Positions 1 to 44,315 of a DNA stretch of 64,000 nucleotides are shown here, piece by piece. The stretch is from assembly GCA_963716375.1 (NCBI GenBank), contig OY970306.1:2421228-2485227 (forward strand), read 5' to 3'. How positions within the stretch are numbered: position 1 is the first letter of the stretch; each line of letters begins with the position of its first letter. Position numbers and translations under genes: made by a program. The DNA is from an uncultured Chloroflexia bacterium (GTDB taxonomy: Bacteria > Chloroflexota > Limnocylindria > Limnocylindrales > CSP1-4). Under the pieces are notes generated by a model. It was not told the DNA's origin. It searched no databases and saw only the letters and a list, made by a program, of their open reading frames with translations.

Positions 1-93
1 CTTGGTCGCGGTGGTGCTCGTGCTGCTGCTGCAGGCGGCGGCAGCCAGCGCCACCACGATCAGCAGCGCGGCCAGTCGGCGTGTCGTTTGCAT
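1..93 (-). CDS. Lipoprotein N-terminus (partial, runs off window); probable substrate-binding protein of the adjacent ABC transporter
   Basis: The reverse complement of 1-93 reads MQTTRRLAALLIVVALAAAACSSSTSTTATK, a signal peptide with lipobox LAAAAC|S. A GGAGGG Shine-Dalgarno sits at about 100-106. It lies last in a permease-ATPase-permease operon. Confidence 0.5.
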   Translation of the reverse strand, partial: MQTTRRLAALLIVVALAAAACSSSTSTTATK

Positions 94-228
94 GAGAACC
101 CTCCTCGTCGAAACTCCCTGGGCTGGGCGCGACGCGTGTCGATGATCAGGTGCTTCGCTCACCTCCTCCTGTCGGCGACCTGCGCGGGGCGTCCCGGCCG
201 GCCGCATCGGTCGCTCGCCGACCTCCGT

Positions 229-2000: not shown

Positions 2001-2944
2001 GGCCGGGCCTCGATCGGCCGGTAGCGGCCGCGGGTGACGAGCCGTTCCACGACCCAGATCAGGCCGACGAAGAACAGCCCCAACAGGCAGGTCGCGATGA
2101 TCGTGGCCCAGAGCTTCTCGGGATCGGTCACGTAGTACTGGTTGAAGTTGAGGATCGCGCCGCCGAGTCCCCCCGGGATGCCCGAGGGCAGCTCGCCGAT
2201 GATCGCGCCGATGATGCTGGCCGTGGCCCCGATCCGGAGCGCCACGAACAGGTACGGCACCGACGCCGGCAGGCGCAATCGCCAGAGGATCTGCGACCGA
2301 CTCGCGGCATACGAGCGCATCAGCTCGAACGCCCGCGGGTCGGCGGAGCGCATCCCGCGCAGCGCGCCGACGGTGACCGGGAAGAACGTCAGGTAGGCCG
2401 AGATGACCGCCACGGACAGCCAGTCGGCCCGCAGGAAGATCACGATGATCGGGGCAAGAGCGATGATCGGCACGGTCTGGGACGCGACCACGTAGGGCAC
2501 CAGCGCCCGCTCCAGCAGGCCCGAATGGATGAACAGGATGGCGAGGCCGAGGCCCAGCAGCGCCCCGAAGACGAACCCGATGAGCGCCTCCTGGAACGTG
2601 AAGACCGCCGCACCGAGCAGGACCGACGCCATCGGCGGGCCGTTCCGCTGGGCAGGCTCCAGGAACGAACCGGCGATGTTCCAGACATGGGGCAGGGCAA
2701 GGTCCGTGGCGATCCGAATCGAGAACGGCGGCCGGTGTTCGTAGTCGATGCCGAACCCGGCGATCGAGGCGTGGATGCGCCACGGATCGCCGGCGAGCCA
2801 CTTGAGCAGCTCCCAGGCGACGAGCAGCAGCCCGATGACGACGAGGATCCCGAGCGTCCGCCGCCGCCGGCTGAGCCCCGCGCTCGCCGAGGGCGACGCG
2901 GATCGACCGCCCGGCCGGATCAGCGAGCGGCTTGCCGTGGTCAT
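1997..2944 (-). CDS. ABC transporter permease (NitT/TauT family), second permease
   Basis: A 315-aa multi-TM protein, paralogous to 229-1071 in permease topology and motifs. Confidence 0.85.
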   Translation of the reverse strand: MTTASRSLIRPGGRSASPSASAGLSRRRRTLGILVVIGLLLVAWELLKWLAGDPWRIHASIAGFGIDYEHRPPFSIRIATDLALPHVWNIAGSFLEPAQRNGPPMASVLLGAAVFTFQEALIGFVFGALLGLGLAILFIHSGLLERALVPYVVASQTVPIIALAPIIVIFLRADWLSVAVISAYLTFFPVTVGALRGMRSADPRAFELMRSYAASRSQILWRLRLPASVPYLFVALRIGATASIIGAIIGELPSGIPGGLGGAILNFNQYYVTDPEKLWATIIATCLLGLFFVGLIWVVERLVTRGRYRPIEARP

Positions 2945-2969
2945 TCGACGCTCGGCCGCCCGCTCGCCG

Positions 2970-4307
2970 TCAGGCTCGGACCGACTGGTCGGTGATCGCG
3001 AGGGCCCGATCGATGATCTCGAAGCCCTGGCGGAGCTCGGCCTCGCTGATCGTCAGCGGCGGGTTCGTGTAGACGCTGTTCCAGCGGACCATCGTGTAGA
3101 GGCCCTCCTGGCGGAAGAACCGGCCGATGGCGGCCATCTCGTCCGAGGTCCCGTTGTACGGCGTCAGCGGGGTGTACGGCTCACGGCTCCGGACGAGATC
3201 GATGATCCCGAACAGGCCGATGTTGCGCGCCGCGCCGACGGACGGGTGGCGGGCGACCAGGTCATCCATCAATGAGCGCATCAGGACGCCTCGCCGGGCC
3301 GCCTGCTCGATCAGCCCGTCCTCCTCGTAGACCGCGATCGTGGCCAGGGCGGTGGCGCAGCCAAGTGGGTGGCTGTTGTACGTCAGCCCGCCGTAGAACA
3401 CGTTCTCGCGGAAATGCTCCGCGATGTGATGGCGCATCCCGAGAGCCCCGAGCTGGACGTAGGCGCTCGTCAGCCCCTTGGCCATCGTCATCAGGTCGGG
3501 TACCACGCCCCAGTGGTCGATCGCGAACCACTTGCCGGTTCGCCCGAAGCCGGCCATCACCTCGTCAACGACCAGCAGGATTCCATTGCGATCGCAGATG
3601 TCACGCAGGCCCTGCATGTAGCCGTCGGGCGGGACGAGGATGCCATTGGTGCCCACGACGGTCTCGACGAAGATCGCCGCGATCGTCCTCGCCCCCTCGT
3701 ACATGATCACGTCCTCGGTCTGCTGGAGGACCTCGGCGACGGGCTCCGGCTCGGCCTTCGCCCAGCGGTGGAAATCCGGGATTCGCACGACCCCGGGCAT
3801 GCCCGGCTCGACCGGCCAGCGCCGCGGATCGCCGGTCAGGGTGATGGCCCCGTTTGTGCCGCCGTGGTACGAGCGGTAGCGGGCCAGGATCTTGTTGCGG
3901 CCGGTGAACATGCGGGCGACCTTGATGGCGTTCTCGTTCGCCTCGGCGCCGCCGTTCGTGAAGAAGAACGTGTCGATGTCGCCCGGAGTGATCTCGGCGA
4001 GCTTCGCGCCCAGGCGCGCCCGGGGCTCGGTTGCCATGAACGGATTGGCGTAGGCCAGGGTCGCGGCCTGCTCCGCGATGGCCCGGACGACGCGTTCGTC
4101 GCCATGGCCGATGTTCGTGCACATCAGCTGGGCGTTGAAATCGAGGTAGCGCTTGCCTTCGGGGGTCCAGAACCAGCAGCCCTTGGCCCCGGCGACGGGG
4201 ATCGGATCGACCCGCGCCTGGGCGGACCATTCGAAGATCGTGTGCTGCTTCGTGAGCGCGACGATCTCTTCGCCGGTCATGGAACCCGGCGCTGTGCTGA
4301 TTCCCAT
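2970..4307 (-). CDS. Class-III PLP aminotransferase (omega-amino acid/beta-alanine:pyruvate aminotransferase-like)
   Basis: A 445-aa protein with an aminotransferase-class-III fold, including the PLP-lysine region ...DEVMAGFGRTGKWFA... Its context with pyrimidine-catabolism genes and mmsA suggests a beta-alanine to malonate semialdehyde role. Confidence 0.85.
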   Translation of the reverse strand: MGISTAPGSMTGEEIVALTKQHTIFEWSAQARVDPIPVAGAKGCWFWTPEGKRYLDFNAQLMCTNIGHGDERVVRAIAEQAATLAYANPFMATEPRARLGAKLAEITPGDIDTFFFTNGGAEANENAIKVARMFTGRNKILARYRSYHGGTNGAITLTGDPRRWPVEPGMPGVVRIPDFHRWAKAEPEPVAEVLQQTEDVIMYEGARTIAAIFVETVVGTNGILVPPDGYMQGLRDICDRNGILLVVDEVMAGFGRTGKWFAIDHWGVVPDLMTMAKGLTSAYVQLGALGMRHHIAEHFRENVFYGGLTYNSHPLGCATALATIAVYEEDGLIEQAARRGVLMRSLMDDLVARHPSVGAARNIGLFGIIDLVRSREPYTPLTPYNGTSDEMAAIGRFFRQEGLYTMVRWNSVYTNPPLTISEAELRQGFEIIDRALAITDQSVRA

Positions 4308-4593
4308 CGGTCCACCTCGGGCTGGCTGTGCCGGCCGCAGGGGCCATCCGTGACGGCCTCACGCCCGGAGGGGACCCGAGCGTCCAGCCTGTCTTCCGCG
4401 GTCGGGCGATCCCTCGGAACGTGGCCGTCATTCAACCACACTTGAGCACGCCGGCCCAGCCGTCCGGACCGGATTCGGCGGTGGCGCCGGCGCCCGCGAT
4501 GGGCCACCGGCCCTGGCGCCGGGTGACGGGTTCCGGCTTCGGCGGTACCATGGCGACCGGACCCATCCCCCGCGCACCGCACAGGTACAGGCC

Positions 4594-6972
4594 ATGCCCA
4601 TGCCGTCGAGGGCACGATTCGCCCTCGCCGCAGCGCTCGCCCTGGTCGCGAGCGGCGTTCCCTTCGGCACGCTTCCCCCGCTCGATGACCTTCGATCCGG
4701 GCTCGGCCTGGAGCCCGGATCGGCCCGGGCAGCCATCCAGCAGCAGTTCGCCCAGCAGGGCATCCTGCCCGTCGCCCCGGGCGTGAATCACGAGTGGGGC
4801 GCGATGTCGACGAGTTCCGGACCGCAGGTCGTCAACCTCGTCGAGGTCGCCCCGAACGCGCCGGGGATCACGTTCGAGTCGTCGATCGCGCGCGGTACGG
4901 TCGTCGGCCTGGAGCGGCCGAGCGCCACGGCCAACCGCCAGAGCGTCGAGGGCCACCGCGCCGTCGCGGCGATCAACGGCGACGTCTGGAGCAGCTCGAG
5001 CGTCGGCGCCCAGGCTGCGCCCTTCGGGCTCGACATCCATCACGGCGAGCTGGTCGTCGCAGGCTCCGCCGCGCGGCCCGCCTTCGGGATCGACGGCAAC
5101 GGCCAGCCTCTCATCGGCGCCCCGGTCGTGACGGTCAACCTCCTGACCGGCGATGGCGCGTTCCACCCGATCGACCGCGTCAACCAGCGCCGCAACGCCG
5201 GCGAATTCGTCCTCTACACGCCGCGCTTCGGGTCGCAGACGGACGCCGACTCGTCGGGCATCGAGGTGGTCCTGAGCGGCGTTCCGCTGCCCCTCCGCGC
5301 CAACCTGAACGTGCCGGCCACGGTGGTCGCGGTCCGACCAGCAACGGGTTCGCTGCCGATCGACCCCACGACCGTCGTGGTGACGGGTCCGACGAATTCC
5401 TGGCTCGCGACGCTGCTGCCGGGCCAGCCGCTCCAGTTGACCCTGTCGATCACCTCGGGCTGGGAGAACGCCTCCGAAGTGATCGGCGGGCGCGAATTCA
5501 TCCTCCGCAACGGGAACACGTACATCTCGCCCCACCCGGCCATCGCCGACCAGCTCCACCCCCGGACGGCCCTCGGGATCACCGCGGACGGCGGCGTCGT
5601 CCTTGTCGTCGTCGATGGGCGCGACGCGGGCGTAAGCACCGGCGTCACCGACTCCGAGCTGGCGTCGCTCCTCGCCAGCAAGGGGGCCATCAATGCGATC
5701 AACCTCGATGGGGGCGGCTCGACCTCGATGTCCGTCCGGCAGCCGGGCGACGGGGTCGTCTCCGTCGTCAATCGGCCGTCGGACGGCACCGAACGATCGG
5801 TTGCCAACAGCCTCGTCCTGTTCAGCGCCGCTCCGACCGGTCCGCTGGCGATCCTCAACGTCACGCCCCATGCCACGTCGACCTACGTCTCGGCGTCGGT
5901 CCCCTATCGCCTGACCGGCCAGGATGCTGCGTACAACCCGGTCGGGGTCCCGGCCTCATCCATTGCCTGGTCCGTGGCCGGCGCCGCGGGAACCTTCGAT
6001 TCCGGCGGCCGCTTCACGCCGACCGGACCGGGCTCGGCGACGATCACGGCGGCCGTTGGCCCGGTCGAGGGTTCGGCAAGGCTGAACGTGCTCGTCGACA
6101 CCTCGCCCCCGGTCGCCCAACCGCCGGTCGTGACGCTCCTGAAGGGCGAGGCCATCGGTACGAGCATCCCGGTCCAGGTGAGCTGGCCGGCCGGCAAGGA
6201 CGTCGGGATCGGGCTGGCCGGCTACGCGCTCGATCGGAACGTGAACGGCCACGGCTGGGCGGCGACGCCATCCGGCAGCGCGATGAACCGGTACGTCCCA
6301 TCGGGTCTCGCGCGCAACACGAACTATCGCTATGCGATTCGCGCCTCGGACAAGGCCGGCAACGTCGGGGCCTGGGTGACCGGGCCGTCGTTCCGGGTCG
6401 TGACGCTGTCCGAAGCGTCGCCCTCGATCTCGTTCCACGGATCGTGGAGTCGCATCAAGTCGCCCTCCTATGACGGCAAGGCCGCGAAGTCGACCCGGAC
6501 TGCCGGTGCGTCGGCAACGTACACCTTCGTCGGGATGAGCTTCGCCTGGGTGGCCGCCACGAGTCCTGTCCGGGGCTCGGCTGCGGTCTACGTCGACGGC
6601 GTGCTGGCAGCCAACGTCAGCACGTACTCGAAGACGACGACGGCCCGGGAGATGGTCTTCACGCGCAGCTGGGACAAGATCGGCCGGCACACGGTCAAGA
6701 TCGTGGCGCTCGGGACGGCCGGCCATCCGCGGGTCGATATCGACGCCTTCGTCGTCCTGGCGAGCCCGACGATCACGGTCGGGGCGCCGCCGGCGTCCGG
6801 CAAGCCGGTTCCGTCGCCGACGCCCAGCCCGACCCCGACACCCACGCCGTCGCCGACCCCCGTGCCGACGCCGCCGCCCAGCCCGAACCCGTCGCCGACT
6901 CCCTCGCCCACCCCGACGCCCAGCCCGACCCCGTCGGGCGCTCCGACGCCGACACCGTCCGCCACGATCTGA
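4594..6972 (+). CDS. Secreted multidomain protein: phosphodiester glycosidase (NAGPA-like) domain + Ig-like/FN3 domains + conserved C-terminal beta-domain + Pro/Thr/Ser linker tail
   Basis: Signal peptide MPMPSRARFALAAALALVASG. Motifs AINGDVW and AINLDGGGSTSM are typical of the phosphodiester glycosidase family. An FN3-like YRYAIRASDKAGNVG is present. The C-terminal domain GHPRVDIDAFVV is shared with 58382-60547. The tail is PSPTPSPTPTPTPSPTP... Confidence 0.75.
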   Translation: MPMPSRARFALAAALALVASGVPFGTLPPLDDLRSGLGLEPGSARAAIQQQFAQQGILPVAPGVNHEWGAMSTSSGPQVVNLVEVAPNAPGITFESSIARGTVVGLERPSATANRQSVEGHRAVAAINGDVWSSSSVGAQAAPFGLDIHHGELVVAGSAARPAFGIDGNGQPLIGAPVVTVNLLTGDGAFHPIDRVNQRRNAGEFVLYTPRFGSQTDADSSGIEVVLSGVPLPLRANLNVPATVVAVRPATGSLPIDPTTVVVTGPTNSWLATLLPGQPLQLTLSITSGWENASEVIGGREFILRNGNTYISPHPAIADQLHPRTALGITADGGVVLVVVDGRDAGVSTGVTDSELASLLASKGAINAINLDGGGSTSMSVRQPGDGVVSVVNRPSDGTERSVANSLVLFSAAPTGPLAILNVTPHATSTYVSASVPYRLTGQDAAYNPVGVPASSIAWSVAGAAGTFDSGGRFTPTGPGSATITAAVGPVEGSARLNVLVDTSPPVAQPPVVTLLKGEAIGTSIPVQVSWPAGKDVGIGLAGYALDRNVNGHGWAATPSGSAMNRYVPSGLARNTNYRYAIRASDKAGNVGAWVTGPSFRVVTLSEASPSISFHGSWSRIKSPSYDGKAAKSTRTAGASATYTFVGMSFAWVAATSPVRGSAAVYVDGVLAANVSTYSKTTTAREMVFTRSWDKIGRHTVKIVALGTAGHPRVDIDAFVVLASPTITVGAPPASGKPVPSPTPSPTPTPTPSPTPVPTPPPSPNPSPTPSPTPTPSPTPSGAPTPTPSATI

Positions 6973-7079
6973 GGCACTGAGGGCCCTCGGGCCCGGTGTA
7001 AGCTTCGACGACTGATTGACCGGTTGCGGGTCCGGTCTGGCCGGCCCGCGCCAGCGACCCCTCGCGGAGGTGACGCCCA

Positions 7080-7931
7080 ATGCCCCGAAACGTTCGCGGA
7101 GCGCTGCTGCAGGCAACCTGGACCGGCGACAAGGAATCGATGATCCAGAAGCACGAGCGCTACGCCCACGAGGCCGCCGCCCAGGGCGCCCAGGTGATGC
7201 TCTTCCAGGAGCTGTTCTACGGGCCCTACTTCTGCCAGGTCCAGGACGCGCAGTACTACAGCTACACCGAGCACATCCCCGACGGACCCACGACGAAGCG
7301 GATGCAGGATCTCGCCAGGCAGACGGGCATGGTGATCGTCGTCCCGATGTACGAGGAGGACGAGAAGGCCTCGGGGATCTACTACAACACGGCCGCCGTG
7401 ATCGACGCGGACGGGAGCTACCTCGGCAAGTACCGCAAGACGCACATCCCCCATGTCAAGGGCTTCTGGGAGAAGTTCTACTTCCGGCCGGGCAACCTCG
7501 GCTATCCGGTCTTCGAGACGGCCGTCGGCAAGGTCGGCGTCTACATCTGCTACGACCGCCATTTCCCGGAAGGCGCCCGCGCACTCGGCCTCAACGGCGC
7601 GGAGATGGTGTTCATCCCGAGCGCCACGAGTCGCGGCCTCTCCGAGTACCTCTGGCGGATCGAGCAGGTCAGCCATGCCGTGGCCAACGGCTACTTCGTC
7701 GGCACGATCAACCGCGTCGGCATCGAGAAGGATCTCGGCGAGGACGACTTCTACGGCCAGAGCTACTTCGTGAACCCGCGCGGCCAGTTCATCGGCGCGG
7801 TCGGCGACGCGCACGAGGAGGAATTGCTGGTCCGGGACATGGATCTCGACCTGATCACCGAGGTCCGCCAGACGTGGCAGTTCTACCGCGACCGGCGACC
7901 CGACCAGTACGGAGACCTGGTCGCCCCCTGA
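7080..7931 (+). CDS. Beta-ureidopropionase (beta-alanine synthase), nitrilase-superfamily carbon-nitrogen hydrolase
   Basis: A 283-aa protein with strong similarity to eukaryotic-type beta-ureidopropionase (YRKTHIPHVKGFWEKFYFRPGNLGYPVFET...NGAEMVFIPSATSRGLSEYLWRIE...NRVG). The catalytic Cys lies in the YICYDRHFPE context. Confidence 0.85.
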   Translation: MPRNVRGALLQATWTGDKESMIQKHERYAHEAAAQGAQVMLFQELFYGPYFCQVQDAQYYSYTEHIPDGPTTKRMQDLARQTGMVIVVPMYEEDEKASGIYYNTAAVIDADGSYLGKYRKTHIPHVKGFWEKFYFRPGNLGYPVFETAVGKVGVYICYDRHFPEGARALGLNGAEMVFIPSATSRGLSEYLWRIEQVSHAVANGYFVGTINRVGIEKDLGEDDFYGQSYFVNPRGQFIGAVGDAHEEELLVRDMDLDLITEVRQTWQFYRDRRPDQYGDLVAP

Positions 7932-8079
7932 AACCTCCGACCAATGGCAACCTCGGGCGGACGGCATCCTCGGGCCAATGGCCTCGCGGGGCTCGGCCTT
8001 GGACCTCGGAGGGCGATTGCTCGGTCCACGGCGAGGGTGGCACGGCCGGCAATGAACAGTCACTGAGGGTTCCGTCACG

Positions 8080-9090
8080 ATGGACTTCGGGTTCACGCTC
8101 AAGCCGGAACACACGATCGAGCGCCACCTGGCCCTGACCCGCCAGGCGGAAGCCGCGGGCTTCAACTACGGCTGGCTGTTCGACTCCCATGTCCTGTGGC
8201 GCGAGCCGTACCCGCTCCTGACCCTCATGGCCGGGGCCACGACCCGGATGCGCCTCGGGACCTGTGTCACGAATCCAGCGACACGAGAGCCGACGGTGAC
8301 AGCCAGCGCCCTCGCCACGCTCAACGAGCTGAGTGGCGGCCGGATGGATCTCGGGATCGGCCGCGGCGACAGCGCGCGCCGGGTGCTCGGCAAGCCGCCG
8401 ACCTCGATGGCGATGCTCGAGGAGGCGGCGATCGTCATTCGCGACCTCGCCGAGGGCCGGGCGATCGAATACGAGGGCACGTGGCTGCAGTTGACCTGGG
8501 CCTCGGGCTTCGACCTGCCGCTCTGGATCGCGGGCTACGGCCCCAAGGCGATGGAGCTCGCCGGCCGGGTCGCCGACGGGATCATGCTCCAGCTGGCCGA
8601 TCCGGACCTGATCCGCCTCCTCGTCGGCCAGATCCACGATGCCGCACGGCGGGCCGGCCGGGATCCGGCCGAGATCCGGGTCATGGCGGCAGCCCCGGCC
8701 CACGTCGGACCGCTGGACCTGTGCCGCGAGCGGACCCGCTGGTTCCCGGCCCTCGTCAGCAACCATGTCGTCGATCTCGTCAACCGCTACCCGCGAGACC
8801 AGCTGCCGGCGGCACTGACCGGGTACATCTCGGATCGGACGGGCTACGACTACCACCACCATGCGGAGGTCGGCTCGGCCAACGCGGCGTTCGTCGGCGA
8901 CGAGGTGACGGACCGGTTCTGCGTCCTGGGGTCGGTCGACGATCACCGGCGCAAGCTGCGCGAGCTGGCGGCCGCCGGCGTGGACCAGTTCAACCTGTAC
9001 CTGATGAACGGCGACGAAGAGGAGATCGTCTCGGTCTACGGGAGCGAGGTCATCCCCGAACTCGGGGAGGTTCGGGCGACTCGTGGGTAG
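8080..9090 (+). CDS. Luciferase-like monooxygenase (LLM) family, probable F420-dependent oxidoreductase
   Basis: A 336-aa protein with a TIM-barrel LLM fold (MDFGFTLKPEH..., GIGRGDS, DQFNLYL). It is embedded between beta-ureidopropionase and dihydropyrimidinase. Confidence 0.8.
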   Translation: MDFGFTLKPEHTIERHLALTRQAEAAGFNYGWLFDSHVLWREPYPLLTLMAGATTRMRLGTCVTNPATREPTVTASALATLNELSGGRMDLGIGRGDSARRVLGKPPTSMAMLEEAAIVIRDLAEGRAIEYEGTWLQLTWASGFDLPLWIAGYGPKAMELAGRVADGIMLQLADPDLIRLLVGQIHDAARRAGRDPAEIRVMAAAPAHVGPLDLCRERTRWFPALVSNHVVDLVNRYPRDQLPAALTGYISDRTGYDYHHHAEVGSANAAFVGDEVTDRFCVLGSVDDHRRKLRELAAAGVDQFNLYLMNGDEEEIVSVYGSEVIPELGEVRATRG

Positions 9091-10090
9091 CCCGTCCGGA
9101 GCGGCCGGTCCGGCGGTCGGGCTCGTCCTTCGCCCGCTTCGCCCGGCGGACGCGCCCGCACTGTTCGACCTGGTCCGGCTCAGCCGGGCGGTCGACGGCG
9201 TGATCGAGCCGTTCACGCTCGACGAGCTGACTCACCACTGGTTCGATCATCCGGGTTCGAATCCGGAGGTCGATTCGCTGGGGGCGTTCGACTCGGACGG
9301 CGGCCTCGTCGGGTTCGCCTGGGTCTTCGCCAGGGATCGCCCATCCGACGTGGCCCGCGTCTTCCTCGCGGGCGACGTCCACCCCGGCCACCGCCGCGAG
9401 CGCCTCGGAACGCTGCTCCTGCGCCGGGCCGAAGAGCGGGCGCGGGTCGTCCTCGCGACGCTGGGGCCGGCGCTGACCGGCGAGATCTTCCTCGATTCGC
9501 CCGCGGGTTCGGCAGGTCGTGAGGCGCTGTTCCTGGGCGCGGGCTATCGGGAGGCACGGACGTTCGCGACGATGCGCCACTCCATGGCCGAACCGCCAGC
9601 GCCGGCCGAGCTCCGAGCCGACCCGCCGGGCTTCACGTTCCAGACCTGGACCGAAGCCCTCGATGACGAGACGCGGGCCGCCCACAACGACGCGTTCCGC
9701 GATCACTGGGGATCGGATCCCGTCTCGCGCGAACGCTGGCGACACGTCGTCCGGGGCGCGCCGGGTTTCGACAGCGCCTCGTCCTGGCTGGGTCTCGACG
9801 GCGACACCGTCGCCGGCTACACGCTGACCACGTTCACCACGGACGACGCCGGCCGCCGGCTCGGCTGGCTCGGCTCGATCGGCGTCCGACGCGGCTACCG
9901 GAAGCGCGGCCTCGCGTCGGCGCTGATCGCCCGCAGCCTGGCCGGATTCCGCGAGGCCGGGGCCCTCGAGGCCGGCCTCGACGTCGACCTCGAGAATCCC
10001 AGCGGCGCGCCGCGCGTCTACGGCGCCCTCGGGTTCCACGTCACCCGCCGATCGACGATCTACGTCAAGTCGGTCACGCCCGAGCGCTGA
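9083..10090 (+). CDS. GNAT family N-acetyltransferase with two tandem GNAT domains (MshD-like architecture)
   Basis: A 335-aa protein with two acetyl-CoA-binding motifs (RRERLGTLLLRRA and RKRGLASALIARS). Its start overlaps the LLM stop. Confidence 0.7.
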   Translation: MGSPSGAAGPAVGLVLRPLRPADAPALFDLVRLSRAVDGVIEPFTLDELTHHWFDHPGSNPEVDSLGAFDSDGGLVGFAWVFARDRPSDVARVFLAGDVHPGHRRERLGTLLLRRAEERARVVLATLGPALTGEIFLDSPAGSAGREALFLGAGYREARTFATMRHSMAEPPAPAELRADPPGFTFQTWTEALDDETRAAHNDAFRDHWGSDPVSRERWRHVVRGAPGFDSASSWLGLDGDTVAGYTLTTFTTDDAGRRLGWLGSIGVRRGYRKRGLASALIARSLAGFREAGALEAGLDVDLENPSGAPRVYGALGFHVTRRSTIYVKSVTPER

Positions 10091-10106
10091 CCGCGGAGGA
10101 GGAGCC

Positions 10107-11504
10107 ATGCGGACCCTGATCACGAACGGCACTGTCGTCACGGCCGAGGGCAGCCAGCGGGCCGACGTCCTCGTCGACGGAGAGCGGATCACGGCGCTGG
10201 GCGACGCCCTCGCCCGGCAGGGCGTGTCGCCGGATCACACGATCGACGCCACGGGCAAGTGGGTGATCCCGGGCGCCATCGACGTCCACACGCACATGGA
10301 GCTGCCATTCGGTGGCACCTTCGCCAAGGACACGTTCGAGTCCGGGACCCGGGCCGCGGCGTTCGGCGGGACGACCACCATCGTCGACTTCGCCGTCCAG
10401 TCGCGCGGCCGCTCGCTCCGCGAAGGCCTCGACACGTGGCATGCCAAGGCCGAGGGCAACGCCGTCGTGGACTACGGCTTCCACATGATCATGTCCGACG
10501 TCAACGATTCGACGCTGGCGGAGATGGACCAGCTCGTGGCCGAGGGCATCCCCGACTTCAAGCTGTTCACGGCCTACCCGGGCGTCTTCTACAGCGACGA
10601 CGGGGCGATCTTCCGGGCCATGCAGCGAACCGCCACCAACGGCGGCCTGATCATGATGCACGCGGAAAACGGCCCGGCCATCGACGTCGTGGCGGGCGAT
10701 CTCGTCGCCGCGGGCAAGACCGACCCGTACTTTCACGGCGTCGCCCGCGAGCCGATCTTCGAGGGCGAAGCGACGAACCGGGTCATCCGCCTCGCCGAAG
10801 CGGCCGGGGTGCCCGTGTACATCGTCCACCTCTCGGCCCGCGACGCGCTCAACGAGGTGCGGGCCGGGCGGGATCGCGGGACGCGCGTCTTCGCCGAGAC
10901 GTGCCCGCAGTACCTGTTCCTCTCGCTCGACGACCTCGGCGACGGCTTCAACGGCGCCAAGTTCATCTGCTCGCCGCCGCTGCGGACGGCCGACCACCAG
11001 GCGGAGCTGTGGACGGGTCTCGTCAAGGACGACCTGGCCGTCGTCTCGACGGACCACTGCCCCTTCGACTTCCACGGCCAGAAGGAGCTCGGGCGGGGCG
11101 ATTTCCGCAAGGTTCCGAACGGCCTGCCGGGCGTCGAGGACCGGGTCGACCTGATGCACGACGGCGGCGTGGTCTCGGGCCGGATCTCGCCCGAGCGGTG
11201 GGTCGAGATCATCGCCACGGCTCCGGCCAAGCTCTTCGGGATGTACCCGCGGAAGGGCACGATCGCCATCGGCGCCGATGCCGACATCGTGATCTACGAC
11301 CCGACGGCCGAGCACACGATCTCGGCCAAGACCCACCACATGGCCGTCGACTACTCGTGCTACGAGGGCCGCAAGGTGCGCGGCCGGTCCGACGTCGTGA
11401 TGTCGCGAGGCTCGGTCGTGGTGCGCGACGGGCAGTTCCACGGCCGCAAGGGCTGGGGCCGGTTCGTCAAGCGCTCGCCGAGCCAGCTCATCCACCAGGG
11501 GTAG
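10107..11504 (+). CDS. Dihydropyrimidinase / D-hydantoinase (cyclic amidohydrolase)
   Basis: A 465-aa protein with HxH metal motif DVHTHMELPFGGT, GGTTTIVDFA, and a carbamylated-Lys region consistent with dihydropyrimidinase. Confidence 0.9.
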   Translation: MRTLITNGTVVTAEGSQRADVLVDGERITALGDALARQGVSPDHTIDATGKWVIPGAIDVHTHMELPFGGTFAKDTFESGTRAAAFGGTTTIVDFAVQSRGRSLREGLDTWHAKAEGNAVVDYGFHMIMSDVNDSTLAEMDQLVAEGIPDFKLFTAYPGVFYSDDGAIFRAMQRTATNGGLIMMHAENGPAIDVVAGDLVAAGKTDPYFHGVAREPIFEGEATNRVIRLAEAAGVPVYIVHLSARDALNEVRAGRDRGTRVFAETCPQYLFLSLDDLGDGFNGAKFICSPPLRTADHQAELWTGLVKDDLAVVSTDHCPFDFHGQKELGRGDFRKVPNGLPGVEDRVDLMHDGGVVSGRISPERWVEIIATAPAKLFGMYPRKGTIAIGADADIVIYDPTAEHTISAKTHHMAVDYSCYEGRKVRGRSDVVMSRGSVVVRDGQFHGRKGWGRFVKRSPSQLIHQG

Positions 11505-11645
11505 GCCGCGGCCGGGTTGGGCGCACCTCGTGCGCAGACTGCCCGGTGCCGTGCGGGGCGGCTTCTTGTCACATTCTCACCCAGTGAGCGCTAGCCAGGA
11601 TTCGGCCCCGAACCCACGGCCTCGCTTGGCTTGTACGCCGCCCTG

Positions 11646-11663
11646 GTTGACGATTCCGTCAAC
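11646..11663. promoter_or_regulatory. Perfect palindrome GTTGACG-ATTC-CGTCAAC (candidate transcription-factor operator)
   Basis: A 7-bp inverted repeat with a 4-bp spacer. It sits centrally inside a longer imperfect inverted repeat (11571-11599 / 11721-11749), in the 538-bp intergenic region upstream of mmsA. Confidence 0.4.
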
Positions 11664-11796
11664 TTCTGGTCCCGATTTGGGGTCGGATGTTGCCTCGCGC
11701 GGCCTGGCTCGGCGGTAGCGCCTGGCTAGCGTCCGCCCGGTGAGAATCTGACCGGTTCCCTCCTGCGTCGAGAGTGCTGCCGGGACGGACCCCGGC

Positions 11797-11890
11797 GCCA
11801 CTCGCGCCGGGGCGCCACTCGCGCCGGGGCGCCACTCGCGCCGGGGCGCCACTCGCGCCGGGGCGCCACTCGCGCCGGGGCGCCACTCGC
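11797..11890. repeat. Perfect 17-bp tandem repeat (GCCACTCGCGCCGGGGC) x about 5.6, intergenic
   Basis: Copies of GCCACTCGC start at 11797, 11814, 11831, 11848, 11865 and 11882. The period is not a multiple of 3. It lies about 150 bp upstream of the mmsA start. Confidence 0.9.
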
Positions 11891-12041
11891 AGGAAGGCGG
11901 CACTCGCGCGATCCATTCGACCGGAGGCCCATGCCGGCGGCGGTACAATCGCCCGACTTCGGGTCGCCGCGCCTTCGGCCGCCCGCTCAAGCTCGCTCGT
12001 GGCACCTTCAGCGTCACGACCGCAGTGCCAAGGAGAGCCCG

Positions 12042-13520
12042 ATGGCCACGACGATGGAACCCCGCTCGCGAACCGAGGCTGCGACGCTGCGCAACTACAT
12101 CGGTGGTCGGTGGGTCGAGGCGACCGACGCCCGCGAGAGCATCGAGGTCCCCAATCCCGCAACGGAAGAGGTCCTCGGCCTCGTCCCGCTCTCGGGTGCG
12201 GGTGACGTGGCCGCGGCCGCCCGCGCGGCCCGCTCGGCCTTCCACGACTGGAGCGAGATCCCCGTTCCGGAGCGCGTCAAGTACCTCTACACGCTCCGAA
12301 CCGCCTACCTCGACAACCGCGAGGAGCTGATCCGCGGCGTCACGATCGAGAACGGCAAGATCTACTCGGATGCCGCCGGTGAGTACCGCCGCGCTCTCGA
12401 AGTCATCGAGTTCGCCATCGGGATGCCGACCCTGATGGCCGGCTACAACGTCGAGTCCGTCAGCCGCGGCATCGACACGATGATGGAGCGCTATCCGGTC
12501 GGGGTCACCGCGGCCATCACGCCGTTCAATTTCCCGCTGATGGTGCCCTTCTGGACGCTGCCGATCGCGATCGCCGCGGGCAACACCTACATTCTCAAGC
12601 CGTCGGAGCGGACGCCGTACAGCGCGATGCGCATCGCCGAGCTGATCGACCAGATCGGCCTGCCGGCGGGCGTCTTCAACCTCGTCCACGGCGCGGCCGA
12701 CGCCGTCCAGGCGATCTGCGCCGAGCCCGAGATCGACGCCGTCAGCTTCGTCGGCTCGGCGCGGGTCGCGAAGATCGTCTATGAGGCCTGCGGCAAGCAC
12801 GGCAAGCGCGTCCAGGCCCTGGGCGGGGCCAAGAACCACATCGTCGTCATGCCGGATGCGGTTGTCGCGCCGAGCGTCGAAAACCTCGCCGAGTCGGCCT
12901 TCGGCAATGCCGGCCAGCGCTGTCTCGCGGGCTCCGTGCTCACCGTCGTCGGCTCGGCCAGCGAAACGGTCCTGCCGCACGTCGTCGAGCGGGCCGAATC
13001 GATGAAGCTCGGCTTCGGCCTCGACGAGGGCATCGACATGGGCCCCGTCATCCGGGCCAATTCCCGCGAGCGGATCCGCCGGCTCGTCGACCAGGGCCTC
13101 AGCGAAGGCGCCACGATCATCCGCGACGGTCGCTCGAAGGTGCCGGACAAGGGCTTCTTCGTGGGTCCGACGATGATCGAGATCCAGCCAGACTCGATCC
13201 TCGCCGGCGAGGAGCTGTTCGGGCCGGTCCTGTCGGTGTTCAAGGCCGACACGATCGACACGGCCATCGACCTGATCGTGAACACCAACGACTACGGCAA
13301 CGCGAGCTCGATCTTCACGTCCTCGGGCAAGGCCGCGCGCGAGTTCAAGCGCCGCAATCCGGCGGGCATGATCGGGATCAACGTCGGCGTCGCTGCGCCC
13401 GTGGCCTTCTTCCCGTTCAGCGGCCACCGCAACTCGTTCTTCGGCGACCTGCACGTCACGGGCCGCGACGGGGTCGAATTCTTCACGACCAAGAAGACGA
13501 CGACCACGCGCTGGTTCTGA
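12042..13520 (+). CDS. mmsA: Methylmalonate-semialdehyde / malonate-semialdehyde dehydrogenase (CoA-acylating), aldehyde dehydrogenase family
   Basis: The protein starts MATTMEPRS..RNYIGGRWVEA and is 492 aa, with ALDH motifs and RBS AAGGAGAG. The upstream in-frame extension to 11931 lacks an RBS. Confidence 0.85.
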   Translation: MATTMEPRSRTEAATLRNYIGGRWVEATDARESIEVPNPATEEVLGLVPLSGAGDVAAAARAARSAFHDWSEIPVPERVKYLYTLRTAYLDNREELIRGVTIENGKIYSDAAGEYRRALEVIEFAIGMPTLMAGYNVESVSRGIDTMMERYPVGVTAAITPFNFPLMVPFWTLPIAIAAGNTYILKPSERTPYSAMRIAELIDQIGLPAGVFNLVHGAADAVQAICAEPEIDAVSFVGSARVAKIVYEACGKHGKRVQALGGAKNHIVVMPDAVVAPSVENLAESAFGNAGQRCLAGSVLTVVGSASETVLPHVVERAESMKLGFGLDEGIDMGPVIRANSRERIRRLVDQGLSEGATIIRDGRSKVPDKGFFVGPTMIEIQPDSILAGEELFGPVLSVFKADTIDTAIDLIVNTNDYGNASSIFTSSGKAAREFKRRNPAGMIGINVGVAAPVAFFPFSGHRNSFFGDLHVTGRDGVEFFTTKKTTTTRWF

Positions 13521-13566
13521 CGGGCGGCAGCGGCCGCGTGGGCATGACATCTCGGGGCTGTTCAGG

Positions 13567-15003
13567 CTAGGTCGGGATCGGGGGCTCGGCCTCCCTGTTG
13601 GCAGCGTCCCGTGCGACTCGTTCTGGCTCGGCAAGCGCGGCGGCGGCGATGATCTCTTCGAGCTCTGGCGGGGTCAAGTGCGCCGGCACGGGTTCGGCGG
13701 CCGCCGGGACCGGCTCGGCCACAACCGGCTCGGCCGGCGCAACGTCCGGACCGAGGGCGACGCGATCGGCGAATGCCTCGGCCGCCGTCAGTTCCTCGGC
13801 GTCAACGTCGCCTTCAGGCAGCGAGGTGGTCGTGGACGAGACAAACGCGGCGATCGCGGCGCCCTTGGGCACCGGCGCTCGACCGGACAGGTTCGGGAAG
13901 TCGCCGCCGGCCCACCCACGGCCCGAGCGTTGGGCCGTTAGCAGGGTCTCCCGCAAACCGCTTTCGGTGGTCGGCGAGCCCGCTGCGGCGATGCCCGGTG
14001 CGGCCGCACGCGGAATGACGAGCTCCGAGGGCGTGACGACAGGTGGAGTCACCTGCCGGACGTCCGCCGGCGCCGGCCGTCCAATTCGAGAGCGTTCGGC
14101 CAGGACTTCGCGACTGTCCCGCCCGGTATGGGTCGCCAGCAGGACGAACAGCCCGAAGCTCGCAGCGGCAATCAGGAGCGCGGTGATCTGGCCGGCTCGG
14201 AACGGCCCGAGGACCTCGGGATCGCGCCACAGGAAGGCCGCTGCGATGCGAGCGAGCGCCCACAGGCTCAGCGCCGCGAAGAACACCCGCCCGTCCTGGT
14301 CCCGGAATCGGCCGACGAGCAGCAACGATCCGATCAGGAGGAAGACCGAAAGGATCAACAGGCCCTCGTAGACCTGCGCCGGATGGGCGGGAACCTGCGG
14401 GGTCAGCGTGCCCCATGGGCCTTCGCCGAGATAGCGGGTGGCCCACGGGAGATCGGACGGACTGCCCTGGCCGTTGGCGCCGAGGACCATCGCGAACTTG
14501 CCGAGGGCGAGGCCGAGGAGCAGCGGGATCGTGACGACATGCAGCCAGCGCCCGACCGGTGCCCCGAGCGCCATCGCGACAAGGATGCCAGCGGCGGTGC
14601 CGAAGATGATCGCGAAGCTCAGCTCGAGGCTGCCCTGGCCTGGATCGACGATGTACCCCGGATTGACGGAGTAGTAGTCCCAGTGGACGACGACGTAGCC
14701 GATCCGGCCGCCGATGACGGCGCCCGGGATGACGCCCAGGAGGATGAGCAGAAGATCGTCACGACGCAGGTGCCAGACGCCACGTTCGCTGCCGCCGAGC
14801 TCCGGGGAGGCCTCGTTCACGGCCGGCATCCGCCCGGCAATCAGGCCGGTGAGCGCGATCGACACGACGATGACCGCGGCGAGTGCCAGCGTTTCCCACC
14901 GGATGGCGAGTTCGCCGATCCTGAGAAGCGCCCCGAAGTCGAACGAGATGACTGCGGGCGTCACGGCTCTGGTCAGTGTACCGACGCGATCACCCCGGGA
15001 CAC
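13567..15003 (-). CDS. lgt: Prolipoprotein diacylglyceryl transferase paralogue (divergent Lgt) with long Ala/Pro-rich C-terminal extension
   Basis: The N-terminal core aligns motif-for-motif with canonical Lgt at 22556: GRIGYVVVHWDYY vs GRLYHVIDQWALY; LALGKF vs ARWGNF; YEGLLILS vs YESLSGIL. Confidence 0.65.
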   Translation of the reverse strand: MSRGDRVGTLTRAVTPAVISFDFGALLRIGELAIRWETLALAAVIVVSIALTGLIAGRMPAVNEASPELGGSERGVWHLRRDDLLLILLGVIPGAVIGGRIGYVVVHWDYYSVNPGYIVDPGQGSLELSFAIIFGTAAGILVAMALGAPVGRWLHVVTIPLLLGLALGKFAMVLGANGQGSPSDLPWATRYLGEGPWGTLTPQVPAHPAQVYEGLLILSVFLLIGSLLLVGRFRDQDGRVFFAALSLWALARIAAAFLWRDPEVLGPFRAGQITALLIAAASFGLFVLLATHTGRDSREVLAERSRIGRPAPADVRQVTPPVVTPSELVIPRAAAPGIAAAGSPTTESGLRETLLTAQRSGRGWAGGDFPNLSGRAPVPKGAAIAAFVSSTTTSLPEGDVDAEELTAAEAFADRVALGPDVAPAEPVVAEPVPAAAEPVPAHLTPPELEEIIAAAALAEPERVARDAANREAEPPIPT

Positions 15004-15035
15004 CCTGTTCCGGCCGCGAACGAGCCATGCCGGGT

Positions 15036-16046
<1,011 letters not shown>

Positions 16047-16123
16047 CTATCGACTGGCAGGCCCGCCCCGGTGACAGCCGCGGCTGGCGATGAGGGTGCC
16101 GGAGCGCGCAGAGCGGACTGCCC

Positions 16124-43961: not shown

Positions 43962-44001
43962 CAGGACTCGCAGCGCCAGCCTCCCCTCGTCACGTGCGTG
44001 G

Positions 44002-44298: not shown

Positions 44299-44315
44299 CA
44301 GGTCCACGCGGCGGG

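Follow-up and report, generated by a model that had tools for sequence, protein, structure and literature searches.

The luciferase-like (LLM) oxidoreductase encoded in the 64,000-nucleotide stretch of DNA analysed here (the window) is best explained as an F420H2-dependent uracil/thymine reductase that would replace the dihydropyrimidine dehydrogenase PydA. The evidence for this reading is comparative only, and we put its probability at roughly 0.7. We favor it because the gene is linked to genes of pyrimidine breakdown across phyla, because its proteobacterial orthologs belong to an F420 operon, and because the canonical enzyme is missing from the same loci. These three lines also support the proposal in the initial annotation that the LLM protein supplies the missing dihydropyrimidine dehydrogenase step with F420, within the limits of a comparison. 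The genes under discussion are listed in Table 1.

Table 1. Genes of the proposed pyrimidine cluster and adjoining features in the window.
Feature	Position	Strand	Details
ABC transporter permease	229-1071	-	BPD_transp_1
ABC transporter ATPase	about 1068-2024	-	ABC_tran
ABC transporter permease	1997-2944	-	BPD_transp_1
Class III aminotransferase	2970-4307	-	PF00202 E=5.6e-87; NF004718 517 bits, cut-off 472
CN_hydrolase, candidate beta-ureidopropionase (PydC step)	7080-7931	+	PF00795 E=3.4e-65
LLM (luciferase-like) oxidoreductase, TIGR03842 family	8080-9090	+	ATG to TAG, 336 aa
Double-GNAT acetyltransferase	9083-10090	+	PF00583, two stretches
Dihydropyrimidinase / D-hydantoinase (PydB step)	10107-11504	+	TIGR02033 580 bits, cut-off 393
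CoA-acylating methylmalonate-semialdehyde dehydrogenase	11931-13520	+	TIGR01722 520 bits, cut-off 448

The GC3 of the LLM reading frame is 0.91, a value typical of real genes in this window of ~70% GC. Its sole Pfam domain is PF00296 Bac_luciferase (E=1.5e-62), and residues 2-328 match positions 1-329 of the TIGR03842 profile with 427.2 bits (cut-off 295.45), which establishes family membership. TIGR03842 is listed in NCBIfam as 'LLM class F420-dependent oxidoreductase', CPS_4043 family, with the status 'hypoth_equivalog' and without an assigned function. That no member of TIGR03842 has been examined biochemically or genetically counts against the best explanation. The AF2 model of the protein has the (beta/alpha)8 luciferase-like fold (pLDDT 90, pTM 0.89), and in a Foldseek search with this model ranks 1-29 were all F420 enzymes (Mer, Adf, Fgd and FGD2; TM 0.72-0.78). 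Likewise, a PDB sequence search placed Mer (1z69/8qpl) first, and its other top matches were F420-dependent LLMs as well.

Conserved residues were compared in 12 other TIGR03842 members drawn from Chloroflexota, Actinomycetota and Proteobacteria (39-78% identity). The invariant residues of the family, V63-T-N-P, G-R95-G-D97-S-x-x-R101, Y153-G-P, Q171 and R-W221-F-x5-N228-H229-x2-D232, were found in the window protein and in all 12, and the window protein carries the family motifs VTNP, GRGDSxxR and RWFxxxVxNHVxD. Residues Gly61-Val62 of jMer, the F420 backstop, align with Cys62-Val63, and this Val is invariant in TIGR03842. Judged from the alignment, Val63 thus meets the description of the small hydrophobic backstop of the LLHT non-prolyl cis-peptide, while the cis conformation and F420 binding are inferred. 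Mer is the nearest characterised relative of the protein (127 bits, ~30% identity), and two homologs carry the source label 'methylenetetrahydromethanopterin reductase'. However, the idea that the window gene encodes this enzyme is effectively refuted. The Mer models matched well under their cut-offs (NF002619, 155.3 vs 276; TIGR03555, 143.5 vs 348.7), the catalytic Glu6 of Mer is Thr6 here (T/V/C/S in the family), its stacking Phe233 is the invariant His229, and no C1-carrier genes are present in the neighbourhood.

RutA is a luciferase-like enzyme that acts on uracil. The LLM protein might likewise be an FMN-dependent monooxygenase that attacks the pyrimidine ring, or might be unrelated to the pathway and merely co-located with it; we consider either possibility very improbable. 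Matches to FMN-LLM models in NCBIfam were weak and far under the respective cut-offs, whereas the strong matches were all to F420 classes, and the RutA model was absent among the best 25 NCBIfam matches. One TIGR03842 member (P0294/L087) does occur in a different context, beside hydantoinase A/B, a 441-aa LLM, an isochorismatase and an amidase, and the second LLM and the isochorismatase are RutA/RutB-like in type. In the window, however, neither isochorismatase nor flavin-reductase genes lie beside the LLM gene, and no RutB-G set adjoins it. Furthermore, ring opening by the LLM protein would leave the dihydropyrimidinase pointless.

The position of the gene agrees with the initial annotation, which placed it between beta-ureidopropionase and dihydropyrimidinase: a CN-hydrolase gene and a dihydropyrimidinase gene flank it, although the beta-ureidopropionase role of the former is only a candidate one. 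The CN-hydrolase scored 269 bits against the AguB model, under the cut-off of 410, and matched no equivalog model; its nearest PDB entry is an N-carbamoylputrescine amidohydrolase (212 bits), with the fly and human beta-ureidopropionases at 171-179 bits. The dihydropyrimidinase is closest in the PDB to the Bacillus D-hydantoinase/dihydropyrimidinase (~508 bits). The aminotransferase is a candidate for the beta-alanine / beta-aminoisobutyrate aminotransferase of a PydD-like step, and the dehydrogenase is a CoA-acylating (methyl)malonate-semialdehyde dehydrogenase for the final step to acetyl-/propionyl-CoA. With these two genes, the window contains the downstream handling of beta-alanine that belongs to a Pyd cluster. 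The ABC transporter is a candidate pyrimidine importer. Its binding-protein gene is lost beyond the left edge of the window, and the counterpart of this block in a related locus (L001) terminates with an NMT1-type binding protein. Searches of the window for Rfam families and tRNAs gave no match, the region between the CN-hydrolase and LLM genes showed no conservation among 29 loci, and a scan for promoters and terminators gave nothing above chance.

The gene directly downstream was described in the initial annotation as a tandem GNAT translationally coupled to the LLM gene. We confirmed the two GNAT stretches, and the longest reading of the frame, from a GTG start, overlaps the LLM stop codon by 8 nt. 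The coupling is not conserved: no GNAT homolog was detected in any of the 64 related loci with enough flank, even at E<=1e-3, and the slot between the LLM and dihydropyrimidinase genes is filled elsewhere by AhpC-TSA, PIN/MazE or sigma/anti-sigma genes. Its match to the MshD model reaches only 53 bits, against a cut-off of 163. Because it is missing from all related loci, the GNAT was rejected as a pathway component; by this comparison of loci it is an insert specific to the window and lies outside the conserved system.

The linkage of the LLM, dihydropyrimidinase and N-carbamoyl amidase genes was observed in 80 Limnocylindria genomes, in Streptomyces, in Ilumatobacteraceae and in marine Alpha- and Gammaproteobacteria. 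The LLM protein of the window has no record of its own in the assembly index. A genome-collection search with a closer LLM alignment returned Limnocylindria only, and the other lineages came from a contig search and a plasmid collection. The closest relatives of the cluster genes belong to the Chloroflexota class Limnocylindria, not to Actinobacteria, and the window itself derives from an organism of that class, so that the original framing of the protein as an actinobacterial LLM enzyme does not hold. Within Limnocylindria, a CN-hydrolase with 83-93% identity lies no more than 5 kb upstream of the LLM gene in 63 of 69 loci, and a dihydropyrimidinase no more than 9 kb downstream in 34 of 41. 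An aminotransferase is found upstream in 32 of 43 loci, and an Aldedh gene (40-44% identity, opposite strand) in 17 of 41.

The three genes remain linked across three phyla despite rearranged orders, and the amidase is swapped between lineages for a non-orthologous type, a CN-hydrolase in some and an M20 enzyme in others. The Streptomyces order differs from that of the window: the dihydropyrimidinase stop codon lies 15 nt ahead of the LLM start, with the CN-hydrolase gene upstream. In Ilumatobacteraceae the order is CN-hydrolase, dihydropyrimidinase, Aldedh, LLM and ABC transporter, with the Aldedh gene directly before the LLM gene, and Aminotran_3 genes also occur in the Ilumatobacteraceae and Leisingera clusters. 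A soil clade (L089) has a CN-hydrolase, dihydropyrimidinase and CN-hydrolase block divergent from an LLM and CN-hydrolase pair. An NMT1-ABC transporter adjoins the LLM gene in Ilumatobacteraceae, in Cohaesibacter and in locus L091, where the amidohydrolases are only distant kin of dihydropyrimidinase. A plasmid-borne hydA of P. denitrificans lies in a hydantoin-racemase context without an LLM gene and is uninformative.

This linkage is also compatible with a pathway of the same kind that acts on another N-heterocycle, such as a substituted hydantoin, a purine-derived ureide (for example 'yanthine', from reductive uric-acid breakdown) or a modified pyrimidine, with the amidohydrolase and the amidase processing that compound. 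We regard this as unlikely, but of the alternatives considered it deserves the most attention. TIGR02033 spans dihydropyrimidinases and hydantoinases, the window dihydropyrimidinase is ~44% identical to E. coli HyuA of uric-acid reduction, and hydantoins and allantoin are among the substrates of NCS1 transporters. Moreover, a luciferase-family putative F420 reductase has been described in Chloroflexota SsnA clusters (PMC12507026), AllH, PucR and a carbamate-kinase-like gene lie just upstream in the CSP1-4 locus, and the P0294 clade resides among the hydantoinase, amidase and isochorismatase genes mentioned above. On the other hand, a search at E<=1e-10 detected no homolog of SsnA, YgfK, YgeW, YgeX, YgeY or XdhD in the window, nor in the 92 loci. 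The sole matches of this uric-acid gene search were the similarity of HyuA to dihydropyrimidinase and a YqeA-like gene in CSP1-4. The aminotransferase and methylmalonate-semialdehyde dehydrogenase of the window suit beta-alanine and beta-aminoisobutyrate, not diaminopropionate, and the proteobacterial clusters contain a RutR-like regulator and an AptA-type omega-aminotransferase.

We then compared these loci with E. coli PreA and PreT. With a threshold of E<=1e-3, tblastn matched neither of them in the window or in the 92 loci (1.36 Mb in total), although this result covers the loci only and a PydA encoded elsewhere in the genomes is not excluded. PreA is a close neighbour of the dihydropyrimidinase gene in ordinary clusters, at a distance of 0.2-6.3 kb, as seen in 17 plasmid records among the matches listed for both. 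Leisingera, with 10 dihydropyrimidinase-bearing and 10 LLM-bearing plasmids, was not seen among the PreA-bearing organisms in the matches listed. This complementarity between PreA and LLM is not airtight, because 24 of the 84 PreA records fall outside those matches. Since the LLM protein has no homology to PreA or PreT, it could only be a functional analogue of PydA.

The link to F420 is found in the proteobacterial orthologs (46-49% identity), which are encoded by the last gene of a cofG-cofH-cofD-cofC-cofE-npdG-LLM operon. We observed this operon, which provides a full set of F420 biosynthesis genes, in Leisingera, Paracoccus alcaliphilus, Cohaesibacter, Pseudovibrio and Marinobacterium. The npdG gene directly upstream of the LLM gene matches TIGR01915, the NADPH-dependent F420 reductase (191 bits, cut-off 150), and an NADPH:F420 reductase in this place points to a reductive direction of the LLM reaction. 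The presence of F420 biosynthesis and F420 reductase genes in the ortholog operons, rather than a flavin reductase gene, is a further argument against an FMN-dependent monooxygenase. In four of the five proteobacterial loci the operon is flanked by genes for a dihydropyrimidinase, an amidase of the M20 hydantoinase/carbamoylase family, a transporter (NCS1 or NMT1-ABC) and a TetR regulator resembling RutR; in Paracoccus alcaliphilus there is no dihydropyrimidinase within 12 kb, a departure that, like the context of P0294/L087, speaks against the best explanation. The minimal cluster, in Pseudovibrio, contains only the transporter, the dihydropyrimidinase, the M20 amidase, the cof genes, Fno, the LLM gene and the TetR regulator. 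According to the predicted functions of these genes, the conversion of uracil to dihydrouracil is the sole step in the Pseudovibrio cluster without an assigned gene. A tblastn search with the Leisingera CofG, CofH, CofD, CofC, CofE and NpdG sequences was negative for the 64-kb window and for the Limnocylindria loci, and a Pfam scan of about 45 window ORFs, which covers the window and not the whole genome, found no F420 biosynthesis or F420-reducing gene. This absence counts against the proposed function, and the availability of F420 in the organism of the window is an inference.

The same operons bear on the possibility that the LLM protein is an F420-dependent malonate/methylmalonate-semialdehyde reductase, a PydE-like enzyme that forms 3-hydroxypropionate, with uracil being reduced by an unlinked enzyme. 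Interconversion of alcohols and carbonyls is common among LLM-type F420 enzymes (Adf, Fgd and hydroxymycolate dehydrogenase), an extended Pyd pathway that includes a semialdehyde reductase is a known variant, and the step would use up reductant, in line with the npdG linkage. However, we find this explanation improbable. A semialdehyde dehydrogenase gene is already located beside the LLM gene in the window and in Ilumatobacteraceae. Pseudovibrio, Marinobacterium and Cohaesibacter have no aminotransferase within 10 kb, which implies that no semialdehyde is made there, yet they keep the LLM gene and the F420 operon. Finally, under this assignment none of the clusters would encode the PydA step.

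For a uracil/thymine reductase, a mechanism can be proposed by analogy with Mer, in which the substrate, the reaction direction, the binding and use of F420, catalysis and the roles of individual residues are all inferred. Reduced F420 would bind at the C-terminal face of the TIM barrel, with the conserved Val63 behind the deazaflavin in the backstop role that Val has in Mer. Uracil or thymine would occupy the site that in Mer takes up the pterin's pyrimidine ring, in contact with the invariant Asp97 and Gln171. C5 of F420H2 would donate a hydride to C6 of the base, and C5 of the base would take up a proton, for which the family-invariant His229 (Phe233 in Mer) is the best candidate donor. The product, 5,6-dihydrouracil or 5,6-dihydrothymine, would then be ring-opened by the dihydropyrimidinase, and the CN-hydrolase would yield beta-alanine or beta-aminoisobutyrate together with NH3 and CO2. 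The aminotransferase and the semialdehyde dehydrogenase may carry these on to acetyl-/propionyl-CoA, and the ABC transporter probably brings in the base. F420H2 would be regenerated by a gene product encoded elsewhere in the genome, and in the proteobacterial clusters by the NADPH:F420 reductase encoded directly upstream of the LLM gene.

In the table of a 2021 F420 review, most characterised LLM-type F420 enzymes use alcohols, ketones or imines, not C=C bonds, and enone reduction is given as a trait of the FDOR family, which contradicts the statement in the initial annotation that LLM enzymes of this type commonly reduce such bonds. The same table includes picrate reductase, a precedent for an LLM-type enzyme that passes a hydride from F420H2 to an aromatic ring. 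In the mureidomycins, a second precedent, genetic evidence points to a putative F420/FMN oxidoreductase that reduces the uracil C5=C6 bond. In our full-text literature searches, no paper connected the function of dihydropyrimidine dehydrogenase or dihydropyrimidinase with F420.

The reductive breakdown of pyrimidines is textbook biochemistry, and the enzymes known for its first step are limited to an Fe-S flavoprotein complex and its ferredoxin-dependent relative. If the proposed function is correct, a non-homologous, single-subunit, deazaflavin-dependent replacement would represent a new way to dearomatise uracil, and the widespread TIGR03842 family would gain a function. The 2021 review noted that no F420-dependent enzyme had been studied in Proteobacteria or Chloroflexi and called the role of the cofactor there 'minor or niche-specific'. 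The reading proposed here would answer this question, and the gene clusters suggest a concrete and readily testable role. We incline, though only slightly, to a broader view that gives non-actinobacterial bacteria, in TIGR03842, their long-missing physiological F420 enzyme. In many marine Alpha- and Gammaproteobacteria the whole F420 biosynthesis operon, together with the NADPH:F420 reductase, would on this view be essentially an accessory of pyrimidine catabolism that feeds one Fe-S-free uracil/thymine reductase in place of the FAD/FMN/4x[4Fe-4S] dihydropyrimidine dehydrogenase, and Chloroflexota and Actinomycetota would rely on this reductase too. F420 would then become a cofactor of core nucleotide catabolism, and the reductase a fourth kind of PydA beside the NAD(P)H- and ferredoxin-dependent ones. 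Such a reductase, free of Fe-S clusters, would probably be O2-tolerant and could find use in dihydropyrimidine or beta-amino-acid biocatalysis and in studies of fluoropyrimidine metabolism.

Several known systems resemble the proposed one in part. NpsU and SSGG-03002, of napsamycin and mureidomycin biosynthesis, act in secondary metabolism on a nucleoside-antibiotic intermediate, and in vitro activity was not obtained. A prediction of a similar type exists for the same phylum: a Chloroflexota 'luciferase family' yanthine reductase (Life Metab 2025, PMC12507026), in which an LLM protein would replace a PydA-like or YgfK reductase beside a ring-opening amidohydrolase. That prediction is bioinformatic only, and it concerns SsnA-linked clusters of the uric-acid type, whose SsnA, YgeW, YgeX and YgeY are absent here. 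Mer shares with the window protein the TIM-barrel fold and, judged from the alignment, the Val of the cis-peptide backstop, and its Asp96 and the carboxamide at 178, both in contact with the pterin's pyrimidine ring, are kept. It differs in gene context, and the window protein carries invariant motifs, GRGDSxxR and RWFxxxVxNHVxD, that set it apart. The picrate and nitroarene hydride transferases (Fht/Npd) are LLM-type enzymes for which F420H2 is the hydride donor and an electron-poor aromatic ring the acceptor, and the NADPH:F420 reductase NpdG regenerates F420H2 in these systems, just as an npdG-family gene directly precedes the proteobacterial LLM gene. However, their substrates are nitroaromatic xenobiotics, and they belong to another LLM subfamily restricted to a few Actinomycetales. 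With PydA (E. coli PreT/PreA and the ferredoxin-dependent clostridial PydAc), the window protein shares the proposed pathway position, the place in the cluster adjoining the dihydropyrimidinase and N-carbamoyl amidase genes, and the proposed chemistry, with hydride to C6 and a proton to C5 of uracil or thymine. The two have no sequence similarity: PydA is an FMN enzyme of the DHO_dh fold that is supplied either by ferredoxin or through FAD and four [4Fe-4S] clusters, whereas the LLM protein would take its hydride directly from a diffusible deazaflavin, without Fe-S clusters.

Genes of the window (G+C about 70%) were told from the many spurious open reading frames by a codon-position GC filter. 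The luciferase-like oxidoreductase (LLM) matches full-length the NCBIfam model TIGR03842, "LLM class F420-dependent oxidoreductase" (427 bits; cut-off 295), which NCBI classes as "hypoth_equivalog", a family without known function. Open reading frames and Pfam and NCBIfam matches confirm the initial annotation's placement of this gene between a CN-hydrolase, the candidate beta-ureidopropionase, and a dihydropyrimidinase. The solved structures closest to the CN-hydrolase are N-carbamoylputrescine amidase and then fly and human beta-ureidopropionase; those closest to the dihydropyrimidinase are Bacillus D-hydantoinase/dihydropyrimidinase. Judged by sequence, the window holds a candidate gene for each step of reductive pyrimidine (Pyd) breakdown except uracil to dihydrouracil, and the LLM is the only gene of the set left without a role. 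We propose, with a probability of roughly 0.7 resting on comparative evidence only, that it is an F420H2-dependent uracil/thymine reductase replacing dihydropyrimidine dehydrogenase (PydA).

Genes of the window, with coordinates in the window.
Gene	Coordinates	Strand	Remarks
ABC-transporter genes	229-2944	-	opposite strand to LLM
Class III aminotransferase	2970-4307	-	opposite strand to LLM
NAGPA-domain gene	4594-6972	+	792 aa; NAGPA phosphodiester-glycosidase domain, Pro/Ser/Thr-rich C-terminal tail
CN-hydrolase	7080-7931	+	269, below N-carbamoylputrescine amidase cut-off of 410
LLM	8080-9090	+	ATG to TAG, 336 aa; Pfam Bac_luciferase, E=1.5e-62
Double-GNAT	9083-10090	+	335 aa, two GNAT domains; between LLM and dihydropyrimidinase
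Dihydropyrimidinase	10107-11504	+	TIGR02033, 580 bits vs 393
CoA-acylating (methyl)malonate-semialdehyde dehydrogenase	11931-13520	+	TIGR01722, 520 vs 448
PLD-like gene	29451-30809		adjoins next gene
Holin-IV/phosphodiesterase gene	30829-33027	+	732 aa; 4-TMS "phage holin superfamily IV" membrane domain, type I phosphodiesterase/nucleotide pyrophosphatase domain
Ornithine-cyclodeaminase/mu-crystallin gene	38104-39114	+	directly before next gene
Penicillin-amidase/DAO fusion	39127-42960	+	1277 aa; full penicillin-amidase (Ntn hydrolase) domain, DAO-type FAD oxidoreductase; unusual architecture
DUF6941 protein	43572-44033		with SufB/SufD genes
Small Rieske [2Fe-2S] protein	44002-44361		with SufB/SufD genes
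SufB/SufD genes	44002-47153 (region, Rieske gene included)	-	

The source is not an actinobacterium but a Limnocylindria-like member of the Chloroflexota: the best LLM homologs (75-94% identity) belong to Chloroflexota labelled CSP1-4, Limnocylindria or Limnocylindrales, as do all 80 loci returned by a species-level genome scan. Window proteins were compared with these loci by tblastn, and loci with too little flank were excluded from the counts. The CN-hydrolase precedes the LLM by no more than 5 kb in 63 of 69 loci and stands immediately beside it in 50 of 69 (83-93% identity), and the dihydropyrimidinase lies within 9 kb downstream in 34 of 41. The aminotransferase (32/43), the ABC ATPase (25/41) and an aldehyde dehydrogenase (17/41) also recur. 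The tandem GNAT, claimed to be coupled to the LLM, does overlap its stop codon by 8 nt in its longest reading; a GNAT homolog was found by tblastn in 0 of 64 loci, even at E≤1e-3. Because of this absence, and because the gap between LLM and dihydropyrimidinase is a variable slot that elsewhere holds AhpC-TSA, a PIN/MazE pair or sigma/anti-sigma genes, we regard the GNAT as a local insertion outside the system. Its product is weakly MshD-like (53 bits; cut-off 163). The NAGPA-domain gene is likewise inserted, between aminotransferase and CN-hydrolase, with a counterpart there in 2 of 80 loci (38-40% identity). In a Chloroflexi CSP1-4 genome (loci L002/L006, 1-7400), purine-catabolic genes adjoin the pyrimidine-catabolic ones: just upstream of CN-hydrolase-LLM lie AllH, a carbamate kinase resembling YqeA of E. 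coli (48% identity), a regulator of the PucR type, an isochorismatase and a protein of 979 aa.

Distant lineages matter here, since loci within Limnocylindria do not count as independent. Members only 39-51% identical to the window LLM, still above the TIGR03842 cut-off, keep the same partners in different gene orders. In Ilumatobacteraceae (Actinomycetota) the order is CN_hydrolase - Amidohydro_1 - Aldedh - LLM - ABC - NMT1 ... Aminotran_3, and in Streptomyces sp. BHT-5-2 and S. rimosus it is CN-hydrolase - aminotransferase - ... - dihydropyrimidinase - LLM, the LLM following by 15 nt; both Streptomyces resemble the window in CN-hydrolase (68-70% identity) and dihydropyrimidinase (60-61%). 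A soil-metagenome clade (L089) has CN_hyd - Amidohydro_1 - CN_hyd divergent from LLM - CN_hyd, and another clade (L091) has NMT1-ABC, amidohydrolase, LLM and CN-hydrolase, its amidohydrolases being more distant relatives. The divergent cluster of L091/L092 (~4100-16500) also includes GntR, FAA hydrolase, a second LLM, two CoA-transferase subunits, another amidohydrolase and an aminotransferase, and may be a variant pathway. Linkage of this subfamily to dihydropyrimidinase extends over Chloroflexota, Actinomycetota and Proteobacteria. We consider it very improbable that the LLM is a chance neighbour or an FMN monooxygenase. Two members have other contexts, one in Paracoccus alcaliphilus and one (P0294/L087) beside hydantoinase A/B, a 441-aa LLM, isochorismatase and amidase. 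It is possible, if unlikely, that the window LLM acts on a different heterocyclic substrate; the P0294 clade may represent a different heterocycle-degradation pathway with the same reductase family. That clade (L087/L088, ~1-16000) retains all TIGR03842-invariant residues, and its further neighbours are a Bmp-type nucleoside ABC transporter, DUF1989, CobW and a cyclase.

The most informative clusters compared are proteobacterial. In Leisingera caerulea, Paracoccus alcaliphilus, Cohaesibacter, Pseudovibrio and the gammaproteobacterium Marinobacterium arenosum, an LLM 46-49% identical to that of the window is the final gene of a cofG-cofH-cofD-cofC-cofE-npdG-LLM operon, npdG exceeding the NADPH-dependent F420 reductase cut-off (191 bits vs 150). 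This physical linkage to a complete F420 biosynthesis pathway supports, by inference, F420 dependence of the family, and the presence of the NADPH:F420 reductase gene argues that the LLM consumes F420H2 and is a reductase. In four of the five organisms the operon is flanked by dihydropyrimidinase (Leisingera copy: TIGR02033, 615 bits), an M20 amidase of the hydantoinase/carbamoylase family (TIGR01879, 400 vs 204), an NCS1 nucleobase symporter or NMT1-type ABC transporter, and a TetR regulator whose top match is RutR, below the model cut-off (PF08362 TetR_C_3 in two loci). Since the amidase is swapped, M20 for CN-hydrolase, while LLM and dihydropyrimidinase stay, what the clusters share is identified as the Pyd pathway with its three steps. 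Within the minimal cluster of Pseudovibrio, uracil reduction, an inferred activity, is the only task left for the LLM. A PydE-like semialdehyde reductase is very unlikely, given that the LLM occurs together with aldehyde dehydrogenases and that minimal clusters lack the aminotransferase. Leisingera adds to these genes an AptA-type omega-aminotransferase and PntAB transhydrogenase; on plasmid NZ_CP081074.1 (162491-171579; L096/L098) PntAB is co-oriented with aminotransferase, M20 amidase, dihydropyrimidinase and NCS1, a group oriented divergently to the cof-npdG-LLM operon. In Leisingera and P. alcaliphilus the cof-LLM region has a small DUF1330 gene beside it.

By tblastn (E≤1e-3), E. coli PreA and PreT matched neither the window nor any of 92 related loci (1.36 Mb together), which does not exclude PydA elsewhere in these genomes. 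As a positive control, a plasmid collection was searched and had PreA in 84 records and dihydropyrimidinase in 138; in the 17 records that are among the matches listed for both genes, the two lay 0.2-6.3 kb apart. Ten Leisingera plasmids had dihydropyrimidinase and ten the LLM; Leisingera was absent from the PreA-bearing organisms among the matches listed, which lack 24 of the 84 PreA records. A locus of Paracoccus denitrificans PD1222 plasmid 1 (L103, 101404-104329) has a dihydropyrimidinase homolog with Asp/Glu (hydantoin-type) racemase, GntR and TRAP transporter and neither LLM nor PreA, a hydantoin-type context distinct from Pyd clusters.

By sequence, the closest solved structures to the LLM are F420-dependent methylene-H4MPT reductase (Mer; 127 bits) and then other F420 LLMs, and with its AlphaFold model (pLDDT 90) Foldseek ranks 1-29 are F420-dependent LLMs only. 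An alignment of 13 TIGR03842 members, drawn from three phyla, with the Mer of M. jannaschii was read by the residue roles given in Gehl et al. 2024. The F420 backstop Val62 of Mer corresponds to invariant V63, and its pterin pyrimidine-ring contacts, Asp96 and carboxamide 178, to invariant D97 and Q171. In contrast, catalytic Glu6 is replaced by T/V/C/S and stacking Phe233 by invariant His229 within an RWFxxxVxNHVxD motif. With both residues lost and Mer models far below their cut-offs, we rejected Mer identity and give it next to no weight. Arg95, Ser98, Arg101 and Tyr153 are invariant and family-specific. The LLM therefore looks, from alignment alone, like an F420 enzyme predicted to bind a pyrimidine-type ring, and its family appears as tightly conserved as expected of a single function. 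As a uracil/thymine reductase, it would transfer hydride from F420H2 to C6, and C5 would receive a proton, most plausibly from His229; the dihydropyrimidine would pass to the adjacent dihydropyrimidinase, and the remaining genes would complete the pathway. In Proteobacteria, NADPH would supply F420H2 through NpdG.

Precedents exist: picrate reductases of the LLM type pass a hydride from F420H2 onto an aromatic ring (2021 F420 review), and genetic evidence indicates that NpsU/SSGG-03002 reduces the mureidomycin uracil ring. In SsnA clusters of Chloroflexota, a 2025 paper (PMC12507026) notes a putative F420 reductase of the luciferase family that takes the place of YgfK/UacX. We rejected such a reductive uric-acid cluster here: none of the loci has a homolog of E. 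coli SsnA, YgfK, YgeW, YgeX, YgeY or XdhD at E≤1e-10, and the only resemblance is that of HyuA to the dihydropyrimidinase (~44% identity); CSP1-4 does have a YqeA-like kinase. The PydA variants cited in PMC12507026 are NADH- and ferredoxin-dependent only. In a full-text literature search, no paper described a dihydropyrimidine dehydrogenase that depends on F420, which is not conclusive, as many subscription papers lay outside the search; according to the 2021 review, F420 enzymes of Proteobacteria or Chloroflexi had never been studied, and TIGR03842 is still without function in NCBIfam release 20 (June 2026). The uracil-reductase hypothesis is specific, widely distributed and readily testable, no family member having been subjected to experiment. 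The pathway, the fold and the cofactor are known; what we propose as new is a non-homologous enzyme for the first step.
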